Notes under the pieces: model-generated
Seen by the model: the letters and a program-made list of their open reading frames with translations, nothing else
Told to the model about the DNA's origin: nothing
The model's database searches: none
Program-made: the position numbers and the translations under genes
In this document: piece by piece, positions 761 through 20,837 of the stretch
How positions within the stretch are numbered: position 1 is the stretch's first letter
Layout of the letters: each line of letters opens with the position of its first letter
Source: Candidatus Peregrinibacteria bacterium
GTDB taxonomy: Bacteria; Patescibacteriota; Gracilibacteria; Peribacterales; Peribacteraceae
Assembly: GCA_043814035.1 (NCBI GenBank)
Contig: JBDRKJ010000002.1
Location: 136,766 to 200,765 of the forward strand
DNA length: 64,000 nt
Direction of reading: 5' to 3'

Positions 761-940
761 CCAGGGAATTTCTCTGGCCCGACATTTTCTTTTAGAAAGT
801 GTACGGGAACGCATGCGCTGGCAGTGCCCTATTGGCCATCATGCATTTCGATTGCCCGGGAGCGCACCGATGTCCCCTTAAGTGGGGTCACCGACCGGAA
901 GACTTCTCTACTCTGCGATGAGGTGAATTTGATCGTGTCT

Positions 941-1002
941 ATGGTTCGACTACGCTCACCATGACACTTGAGTATGTCACCCTGAGCGTAGTCGAAGGGT
1001 GA
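941..1002. repeat. REP-like palindromic pair (TTCGACTACGCTCA...TGAGCGTAGTCGAA)
   Basis: Two inverted units (941-966 and 974-1002). Exact reverse complements of both occur at 20250-20275 and 20295-20323. Confidence 0.9.
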
Positions 1003-19886: not shown

Positions 19887-19928
19887 CAGCTTAAAGCTAC
19901 AAGCTAAAAGCTATAAGCTACCAGCTGA
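19887..19928 (+). repeat. 7-mer tandem array (AAGCTAN x6)
   Basis: cagctta aagctac aagctaa aagctat aagctac cagctga, in the tsaB/GT2 divergent intergenic region. Confidence 0.85.
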
Positions 19929-19931
19929 CCA

Positions 19932-20837
19932 ATGTCTTCCCTCTCCGTCGTCATCCCCACGTTCCGGCGACCAAATATCCTCAGGCTCTGCCTGAAGTGT
20001 CTTGAGGCACAGACTATCGCCGATGAGCTCGAAGTGATCGTGGTGAGCGACGGCCCTGACCCCGAAACAGCAAAGGTATTCCAAGGTCCTACAAGCTATC
20101 AGCTGCAAGCTATCAGCTACCTCGAAATCTCCAAATCGCAACAAGGTGCGGCACGGAACGCCGGTGTGAAGCGGGCCACTGCCCCATTCACTCTCTTTAT
20201 CGGTGATGACATTTTGTTGGATCGAAGCGCTTGCCAGCGACATCTTGAATGTCATGGTGAGCGTAGTCGAACCATGACTCAGAACTTTCATCCATCACCC
20301 TTCGACTACGCTCAGGGTGACATGGCTGTTCTCGGATTCACCACGTGGGATCCCGTCGTCGAAATTACCCCTGTCATGCACTGGCTTGAGCGAAGCGGAT
20401 GGCAATTCGGGTATCCAAAGATCGCGAAGTACGCGCACAACTTCCTGCCAAAGAGAATTCAGGAACGATTCACCTACACCAGTAACATCAGCGTTCCCAC
20501 AGACACCGCACGAACATTTCGTTTTCGTGAAGATATGACCCTCTATGGCTGGGAAGATGTGGAATGGGGGCTGAGAATGAAGCAGGCAGGTATTCGTCTG
20601 TACTACGAACCAGATGCCAAAGCACTGCACCACCACCACATGACACTGCAAGATTCTCTCAGGCGGGCAGAGACGCTCGGCCAATCTCTTGTGGAACTCG
20701 CACATATGAATTCGGCCTTCCGATCGAACCTCGCTCCGTGGCGCCTTCTGTCCCAACGCGCACGATCATTGTTGCCAACAATGGCAGGAAAACATCGCCG
20801 CGCCTTCCTGCGGGGAATGAAGCAAGCGAATCATTGA
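19932..20837 (+). CDS. Family 2 glycosyltransferase
   Basis: LSVVIPTFRR, IVVSDG, ARNAGV, LFIGDD, YGWEDVEWGLR; carries two in-frame repeat-derived inserts. Confidence 0.92.
   Translation: MSSLSVVIPTFRRPNILRLCLKCLEAQTIADELEVIVVSDGPDPETAKVFQGPTSYQLQAISYLEISKSQQGAARNAGVKRATAPFTLFIGDDILLDRSACQRHLECHGERSRTMTQNFHPSPFDYAQGDMAVLGFTTWDPVVEITPVMHWLERSGWQFGYPKIAKYAHNFLPKRIQERFTYTSNISVPTDTARTFRFREDMTLYGWEDVEWGLRMKQAGIRLYYEPDAKALHHHHMTLQDSLRRAETLGQSLVELAHMNSAFRSNLAPWRLLSQRARSLLPTMAGKHRRAFLRGMKQANH
20250..20323. repeat. REP-like palindromic pair translated in-frame within the GT2 gene
   Basis: Arms are exact reverse complements of 941-966 and 974-1002. Confidence 0.9.

Follow-up and report, generated by a model that had tools for sequence, protein, structure and literature searches.

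A 28-nt hairpin repeat, probably nuclease-linked, read in frame within a glycosyltransferase loop of a Candidatus Peregrinibacteria genome

Described repeat systems and the locus under study

This study concerns a palindromic feature of 74 nt (positions 20250 to 20323) which is translated in frame inside a GT2-family glycosyltransferase gene of a Candidatus Peregrinibacteria bacterium. The gene lies in the window G000:C2:136766-200765, where the window is the whole stretch of 64,000 nucleotides that was analysed and G000 denotes the host genome (1.23 Mb, 12 contigs, 54% G+C). In our assessment, the feature probably consists of two opposite copies of a nuclease-linked 28-nt hairpin repeat that were added in a permissive loop of the GT2 protein. 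The conserved loop of this hairpin begins with TTCGAC, and its copies are referred to as TTCGAC units; two inverted neighbouring units are called a twin.

The Ssn system provides the first comparison. Chenal et al. 2025 (PMC11893778) describe SsnA as a GIY-YIG enzyme of 94 amino acids; it binds single-stranded DNA (ssDNA) carrying a hairpin repeat (NTS/SRM) and cuts beside the repeat. Cutting is ssDNA-specific, double-stranded DNA and RNA being left uncut. They also report that the Ssn gene is commonly flanked by its own repeat, a layout which the authors liken to an insertion sequence, that only 2% of the NTS copies lie inside genes, that Rickettsia counts among the SRM-rich symbionts, and that many further nuclease-motif pairs are predicted, sequence-specific ssDNA nucleases being proposed as molecular tools. 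The system described here is similar in several respects: a hairpin repeat of 20-50 nt accompanies a single-domain GIY-YIG gene of ~95-100 codons on one or both sides; tens to hundreds of repeat copies are scattered over the genome, mostly extragenic; a GTCA-type flank makes the unit directional; the repeat-gene-repeat layout resembles an insertion sequence; and some genomes keep repeats without the gene. In contrast to the Ssn repeat, the TTCGAC unit combines a short co-varying stem with a large conserved loop, and, set against the 2% of NTS copies in genes, TTCGAC units are found translated inside genes.

Rickettsia palindromic elements (RPEs), reportedly described by Ogata and colleagues in 2000, are said to be palindromic repeats inserted in frame in protein-coding genes. 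RPEs measure ~100-150 bp, are restricted to Rickettsia, and add a peptide in a tolerant surface segment while the gene is kept. In-frame palindromic insertion without gene destruction is thus common to RPEs and the present locus, whereas the TTCGAC unit differs from them in length (28 nt, or 74 nt as a twin), in sequence, in its occurrence in many phyla, and in its GIY-YIG link. With Rickettsia being SRM-rich, RPEs and the TTCGAC unit may be cousins.

Small dispersed repeats (SDRs), nested in heptamer arrays, are said to have been found in heterocystous cyanobacteria by Elhai and colleagues in 2008. Like SDRs, the units are hairpin repeats in the range of ~21-28 nt without an encoded protein that occur together with 7-nt tandem repeats, an arrangement seen below in the GT2 loop of genome G018; unlike SDRs, they have other sequences and other hosts. 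Repetitive extragenic palindromic (REP) sequences and their doublets, REPINs, share with the units extragenic inverted hairpin doublets, alternative long-hairpin or clover folds, and long persistence in lineages (Bertels and Rainey 2011, PMC3116915). In contrast to REP/REPIN, the units show no association with genes for a Y1 or REP-associated tyrosine transposase (RAYT) at 15 such loci, and the RAYT-like genes of the present genome come with separate palindromes.

Literature searches added little to these comparisons. Searching with the peptides encoded by such units found no relevant paper, the accessible part of a Peribacteria genome paper holds no mention of palindromic repeats or transposases, and a search on REPIN/RAYT found nothing on bacteria of the Candidate Phyla Radiation (CPR). 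A 2026 preprint on mining non-coding elements treats SsnA repeats only as a benchmark.

The repeat unit and its copies

The features on which the argument is built are given by window position:

19932-20837, plus strand: open reading frame (ORF) of the GT2-family glycosyltransferase hosting the repeats, 301 amino acids (ORF list, Pfam)
20250-20277, minus strand: hairpin unit 1, stem type TCATGG/CCATGA, core 20258-20271, in-frame reading CHGERSRTM
20278-20294, plus strand: spacer of 17 nt, ancestral loop sequence by homology to the loop of the closest orthologue
20295-20322, plus strand: hairpin unit 2, stem type TCACCC/GGGTGA, core 20301-20314, in-frame reading SPFDYAQGD
939-966, plus strand: left member of a tail-in twin of the same repeat family, ~180 nt 3' of the 16S rRNA end
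975-1002, minus strand: right member of this tail-in twin near the 16S gene

A reading made earlier from the sequence alone (the sequence-only reading) had described both arms of the GT2 feature as exact reverse complements of the arms beside the 16S gene. This is the case for 20250-20275 with 941-966 and for 20295-20323 with 974-1002, the latter match being one base longer (to 20294/1003). Its further observation that the arm order is not that of a simple inversion holds as well: the TGACA tails of the units face inward (plus, then minus) at the 16S site and outward (minus, then plus) in GT2. The 14-nt core TTCGACTACGCTCA has four exact copies in the window (945 plus, 983 minus, 20258 minus, 20301 plus); at up to two mismatches there are seven matches versus 0.41 expected, and seven were reached in 0 of 100 shuffles. 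In the whole 64-kb window, inverted repeats of at least 20 nt within 120 nt occur only at the GT2 and 16S sites. The 74-nt feature is translated in the open GT2 ORF as CHGERSRTMTQNFHPSPFDYAQGDM, directly after the FIGDD strand that holds the DXD motif.

Alignment of all genomic copies on the core shows that each arm is a self-contained 28-nt hairpin unit, TCA-NNN-TTCGAC-N2-3-GCTCA-N'N'N'-TGACA. It is composed of a stem, TCA-NNN/N'N'N'-TGA, whose three middle pairs are variable yet complementary, a conserved loop of 13-14 nt, TTCGAC-N2-3-GCTCA, and a CA tail. The stems co-vary between copies, and the modular build supposed by the sequence-only reading is borne out: the arms are supported as independent units of a dispersed palindromic repeat family. 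Under the pattern TTCGACNNNGCTCA the family has 40 exact sites in the host genome (17 plus, 23 minus) versus 0 for the reversed control pattern, and at least three consecutive stem pairs adjoin the core in 36 of the 40. Stem types among the copies are atgg/ccat, accc/gggt, atcc/ggat, gcac/gtgc, and aggc/gcct. Six further W-type genome copies are identical to unit 1 over 26 nt, which comprise the core, 4 nt of stem on either side, and the TGACA tail.

Eleven inverted twins, spaced 35-52 nt, were identified in the host genome, ten of them tail-out as in GT2 and one, at the 16S site, tail-in. The two members of a twin never have the same stem, so that a single long, imperfect hairpin and a pair of small hairpins are alternative folds of a twin. 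The typical twin site is located 6-30 nt past a stop codon or between convergent genes. Placement was judged with greedy longest ORFs (1,157 ORFs, covering 91% of the genome), by which 20 of 39 units are intergenic, four lie across an ORF end, and 15 are inside ORFs, several of the latter at doubtful N-termini. Three of the six unit frames hold stop codons, and therefore coding copies survive only in open frames. The orientation of unit 1 leaves one of three frames open, that of unit 2 two of three. The in-frame copies read CHxERSR in one orientation and SPFDYAQGD or HPSTTLR in the other, all of them in open frames.

Searches for a known RNA class remained negative in the window, where Rfam found only the 16S gene and one tRNA at gathering score; the 16S-side twin gave only chance-level microRNA and snoRNA matches (E >= 2). 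A likeness of the unit loop to tRNA T-arms or D-arms was dropped by eye, the flanking bases lacking the required stems.

Beyond the host genome, same-genus genomes carry 13-40 units, G011 (another genus) 55, G022 155, and many family members 0-5, with 0-2 matches for the reversed control. In a broad scan, for which each species was represented by one genome and the unit loop was allowed 13 or 14 nt, the full pattern matched at least 126 loci, versus ~9 chance matches expected by our own arithmetic. Among the matches listed, the record titles name Eremiobacterota/Vulcanimicrobiota, Bacteroidota, Ignavibacteria, Calditrichaceae, Alpha- and Gammaproteobacteria, Nitrospinaceae, Spirochaetota, Desulfobacteraceae, Limnocylindrales, and CPR groups, and all three variable stem pairs are complementary in 137 of the 155 units listed, which comprise more than 15 stem types. 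Viral contigs of IMG/VR contribute 35 stretches with a unit.

The glycosyltransferase loop and its orthologues

The host ORF matches PF00535 (GT2) at residues 5-106 with E 1.5e-13 and 51.5 bits, compared to a Pfam cut-off of 23.3. A GT-A N-terminal domain is thereby confirmed, and the residues D92 and D93 of its DXD motif are invariant in 12 orthologues. To EpsD-type exopolysaccharide glycosyltransferases the protein shows a weak full-length likeness with a score under the curated cut-off. Orthologues are present in 35 of 41 related genomes, and 32 of these 35 were covered by the comparison of the loop.

Measured from the invariant DD to the AVLGFTTWD strand, the loop comprises 25 amino acids in all seven out-of-family orthologues and 22-46 within the family, with 40 in the host genome and 27 in genome G004. 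The latter encodes the closest orthologue (84% amino acid identity), which is without both units and 13 amino acids shorter. The sequence-only reading had expected an insert of about 25 amino acids in a surface loop and had named an equal-length orthologous segment without the palindrome as the observation that would speak against it. The orthologues show a variable loop, in G004 shorter and without the units, but the net gain over G004 is +13 amino acids, not ~25; compared to the shortest loops, the host loop is ~15-18 amino acids longer. The spacer between the units (GACTCAGAAC...) is homologous to the G004 loop (host ...GACTCAGAACTTTCATCC... versus G004 ...GACTCAGCAATCTCGG...), and because of this homology we think that an ancestral piece was flanked by separate gains of ~18 and ~21 nt. 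The eight other same-genus GT2 orthologues are all without the units. Contigs of related strains (~90-93% identity) from three metagenome runs have a G004-like loop, 82 nt replacing 121 in run X4, and a related-strain contig with a loose end at 20327 reads the G004-like loop text. In-frame insertion of this kind is how RPEs behave, as the sequence-only reading had pointed out. At the nucleotide level, the loops of the host, G004, and G011 are too diverged for exact insertion boundaries or target-site duplications to be read from their alignment, and a joint between presence and absence within one population was not seen among public-run contigs (Logan; each run holding <=34% of the sampled words).

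The same loop carries other repeats in other species. Eight of the 32 orthologues show a strong period of 7 nt, with 16 or more of 21 positions in agreement, and other perfect inverted repeats occur in G003 and G016. TTCGAC units themselves occur in two of the loops: G011 has a pair that matches the host in order and frames, and G018 has a single copy surrounded by heptamer arrays. The loop is thus hypervariable, and the type of repeat that entered it differs from species to species. Because G011, a member of another genus, bears a twin arranged as in the host and almost at the host position, we take the loop to be a hot spot of long standing and not a place struck once and recently. The recent repeat activity claimed in the sequence-only reading cannot be dated: the copies equal the family consensus, yet the G011 twin sits almost where the host twin does.

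The loops of G003 and G008 (L007/L009) contain another G/C-rich palindrome (CCCCTTTCTCCCGGCGGGAGAAAGGGG and a variant), which is translated as ...PLSPGGRKGAGDRG....

Taken by itself, the view that the 74-nt feature arose when copies of a dispersed repeat were inserted in frame at a permissive loop is one we regard as highly probable. The units would have come to flank an ancestral piece of the GT2 loop, which tolerates almost any sequence. In an AlphaFold model built on a 12-sequence alignment, the insert residues 111-129 form coil with a predicted confidence (pLDDT) < 50 between the helix 100-114 and the strand 131-134, which weakly supports a location in a surface loop. The insertions would have survived because they fall in stop-free unit frames and in a probably disordered, exposed stretch.

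An alternative origin, which we consider unlikely, is an old shared insertion: the twin would predate the split of the host genus and that of G011, would have been lost or overwritten later in most lineages, and would have been kept near consensus by gene conversion. The G011 protein (61% amino acid identity) indeed has a minus-then-plus twin right after the same CATCT codons, read as CHGERCRTM ... SPFDRAQGD, i.e., with the same order, start, and frames, and one unit is present in the loop of G018. However, the sequences as we read them place the G011 counterpart of the host spacer downstream of both G011 units; the second unit is thus on the other side of the spacer homologue and is therefore read as an independent hit. 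Moreover, the G011 cores are that genome's own variants (AGC/AGA triplets), as in its other copies, and the eight unit-free orthologues of the host genus argue against common inheritance as well.

The clade-A GIY-YIG gene and competing explanations

The sequence-only reading had proposed to look for an endonuclease gene flanked by the repeat, and such a gene was found: a small GIY-YIG gene of one clade, named clade A, is accompanied by units in the host genome, at ten of 22 loci in relatives, and in seven of nine distant genomes. PF01541 (GIY-YIG) has ten matches in the host genome, including UvrC, and 8-13 in each of the relatives. The only clade-A gene of the host is C9:1-303 (minus strand), which continues into C3, the contig ends overlapping by an exact 110 nt. 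It scores 59.7 bits over PF01541 positions 2-76 and runs into a twin (units at C3:134 and C3:175) which starts 24 nt past the protein match. Twelve aligned clade-A proteins share a common core of ~95-101 amino acids with a single domain, and positions with Tyr, Tyr, Arg, His, and Glu, which we take to be the typical motif residues of GIY-YIG enzymes, are kept in all twelve.

The ten clade-A loci in relatives with a unit within 350 nt (one with a poor stem) include G004, with units at 24 and 121 nt, four paralogues in G022, and G021. The twin is equally placed in G004 and on contig C33 of G022, 24-27 nt past the protein match, and the clade-A gene on G022:C2 sits between outward-facing units. 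Of ~32 loci that belong to other GIY-YIG clades, 0 have a unit at a distance of up to 800 nt. Along this line, ten distant genomes, reached through loci of the broad scan, were checked for clade A using the best match. Nine have one; canonical units lie no more than 400 nt from it in five of them and variant units in two. Canonical flanks occur in Eremiobacterota, Ignavibacteria, Nitrospinaceae, and Bacteroidetes (there as an array of ~20), and a Limnocylindrales genome holds a gene remnant between canonical units at -25 and +24. The variants, CTCGAC..GCTCG units, lie beside clade A in a Spirochaete and a Flavobacteriales genome. Around the 35 viral unit stretches, no clade-A gene was found within 1.5 kb.

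Some of these loci show further detail. Past the twin at the host clade-A gene, C3:200-330 contains a half unit (ACAGGGCTCACCATGACA) and then ~12 copies of a CCTTAC-type short repeat. In G022, ~120 nt 5' of clade-A genes (L165, L169, L174), one paralogue has a canonical unit at the homologous position, and in two other paralogues the stem and loop ends of the unit (TGTCATGGTGAG...TCGAACCATGA) are split by an extra insert of 25-30 nt, which suggests that units themselves can be invaded or extended. Besides UvrC, the 1.23-Mb host genome has nine small GIY-YIG genes.

Judging by gene context, we think it likely that the clade-A GIY-YIG nuclease is the cognate protein of the unit. The unit would then be the dispersed repeat partner of one clade of single-domain GIY-YIG nuclease genes of ~100 codons, the gene typically standing between, or beside, inverted units; the common gene-less twin is outward-facing like both ends of the clade-A cassette. 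By analogy with Ssn/NTS, the nuclease probably recognises the unit as an ssDNA hairpin and cuts nearby, and units would then spread through repair or template switching in which another copy is used. TTCGAC units were also found, among the matches listed from the broad scan, in genomes of Flagellimonas and Salegentibacter. For species of both genera, Supplementary Data 4 of Chenal et al. (PMC11893778) gives a cd10448 SsnA homologue with only 1-2x SRM enrichment. Indirectly, this overlap agrees with the possibility that some Ssn-like enzymes act on the TTCGAC hairpin. The strings TTCGAC and GTCGAA were not found in those supplement files of the article that were searched, the long ones being possibly incomplete.

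A number of findings weigh against the explanation as a whole. No unit lies within 350 nt of 12 of the 22 clade-A loci in relatives; of the remaining distant genomes with clade A, a Gammaproteobacterium has no unit within 400 nt and one case is ambiguous. Five of eight same-genus genomes (G002, G003, G005, G006, G008) have 13-40 units and no clade-A match at E <= 1e-15, and because these genomes keep their units, the nuclease is not needed for unit persistence. The best solved relative of the clade-A protein is the UPF0213 protein BH0048 (1zg2; E 2.8e-18), and NCBIfam models gave no match to it. The SRM search pattern of PMC11893778, HGTCWYN(0-2)YYVSBRHN(0-5)WNVSBRGN(0-2)RNCYNB, matches none of the four window units on either strand; in the host genome it has ten matches versus 6-10 in five shuffles, none of them overlapping a unit. 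The greedy ORF calling behind the placement of units is crude, and the AlphaFold model has a mean pLDDT of 64 with residues 135-184 also poor. Finally, no clean filled-versus-empty pair from near-identical strains was found, for which reason insertion, as opposed to loss in the G004-like lineages, is argued from parsimony.

A wider reading would take unit and clade-A gene together as a self-spreading module across bacteria and viral contigs, in which the recognition hairpin of an Ssn-type nuclease was copied repeatedly and independently into the same protein loops. This appears possible but doubtful. If it were true, a nuclease-repeat pair, not a transposase, would be a general writer of new protein loop sequence, and the module would keep remodelling the loop of an envelope sugar transferase in this lineage. 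Independently of this wider reading, unit and clade-A gene would form one of the nuclease-motif pairs predicted by Chenal et al., with a motif that escapes the published SRM search pattern. Units of a kind rarely reported in genes can, as the GT2 locus shows, be written in frame into proteins, and the GT2 loop offers a natural experiment on repeat DNA becoming protein sequence in ultra-small genomes. The association provides a concrete candidate partner for a widespread, unnamed hairpin repeat, unit and GIY-YIG clade co-occurring in CPR bacteria, Bacteroidota, Ignavibacteria, Eremiobacterota, Nitrospinota, Chloroflexota, and Spirochaetota.

We give little credence to a host function, by which the hairpin would be kept as a terminator or mRNA-stabilising stem, or, together with heptamer repeats, as a programmed variable or phase-variable GT2 site, rather than being selfish DNA. 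The heptamers concerned are the following:

19889-19930, plus strand: six tandem heptamers NAGCTNN, ending 2 nt 5' of the GT2 start codon (sequence; TRF C2:156653-156691, period 7, 4.7 copies)
20092-20121, plus strand: four in-frame heptamers of the NAGCTNN family in GT2, read as TSYQLQAISYL (sequence; TRF C2:156857-156883, period 14)

The second group falls in another GT2 segment that is variable among the aligned orthologues. With 7-nt tandem repeats thus standing before the start codon, within the gene, and in the loop of a quarter of the orthologues compared, a change in the copy number of 7-nt units would shift the frame. The position of twins shortly past stop codons and between convergent genes, the stable RNA fold of the GT2 twin (-32.6 kcal/mol, z = -3.3), and the conservation of the unit's loop sequence across phyla would equally suit a function for the host. 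However, a terminator role explains neither the conserved 13-14-nt loop nor the tight linkage to one nuclease clade across phyla, the hairpins lack a T-run after them, and length variants of the GT2 loop within one population were not seen in the contigs available.

That the twins are REP doublets mobilised by a RAYT of the Y1/HUH type seems very improbable to us. Inverted twins that are mostly extragenic and lie between convergent genes do resemble REPINs as presented in PMC3116915, and the host genome encodes Y1_Tnp proteins, one IS200-type and two RAYT-like with an MPDHCH motif. A search with PF01797 in this genome and five relatives, however, led to 15 Y1_Tnp loci (in G000, G011, G014, and G022), none of which has a TTCGAC unit within 1.5 kb. 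Each of the two RAYT-like genes has palindromes of its own at its flanks, distinct from the unit; one such palindrome has six copies, five of which are gene-adjacent. Furthermore, G006, a genome in one contig, and G008 contain 38-40 units and show no Y1_Tnp match at E <= 0.01. The connection to a RAYT/TnpA gene that the sequence-only reading had suggested was thus not recovered.

The transposase genes themselves have distinct surroundings. The RAYT-like gene C4:101569-102003 (145 amino acids, MPDHCH; region C4:101380-102180) is accompanied by its palindrome GCAGCCCTTCGTGGCTGCGGC, three copies upstream and two downstream, with only one further copy in the genome; together they look like a tiny REP/RAYT system in a CPR genome. 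Different palindromes flank the second RAYT-like gene (C7 ~56.6-57.0 kb; region C7:56500-57110), downstream of which a tandem CCCCGCCCTGGGGTAATGGCGATTACAG pair is found. The IS200-type TnpA gene C4:106759-107187 (143 amino acids; region C4:106640-107223) sits between two ACACCGCCTGCGTAAGCTGGCGG hairpins at a contig end.

An assembly artefact, in which chimeric joining induced by the repeat would have put the units in GT2, is hardly credible: the family does break assembly, C9 and C3 ending in the clade-A gene beside a twin, but the frame is open through both units, the sequence on both sides of and between them is unique, a 249-nt contig of a public groundwater run equals 20096-20344 with 0 differences (possibly from the source sample, which makes it weak independent support), and the independent genomes G011 and G018 have the same kind of insert in the same loop.

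Two minor observations concern the surroundings of the repeats. The 16S rRNA gene (region 1-1100) ends at 760 and is followed by no 23S or tRNA match within the window, and the rRNA genes appear to be unlinked. Period-7 arrays number 67 in the host genome by TRF, and one GIY-YIG gene (C2:252112-252255), which has an in-frame TGA, adjoins long TGAAGCT/TGAAACT heptamer arrays at C2:252221-254474.

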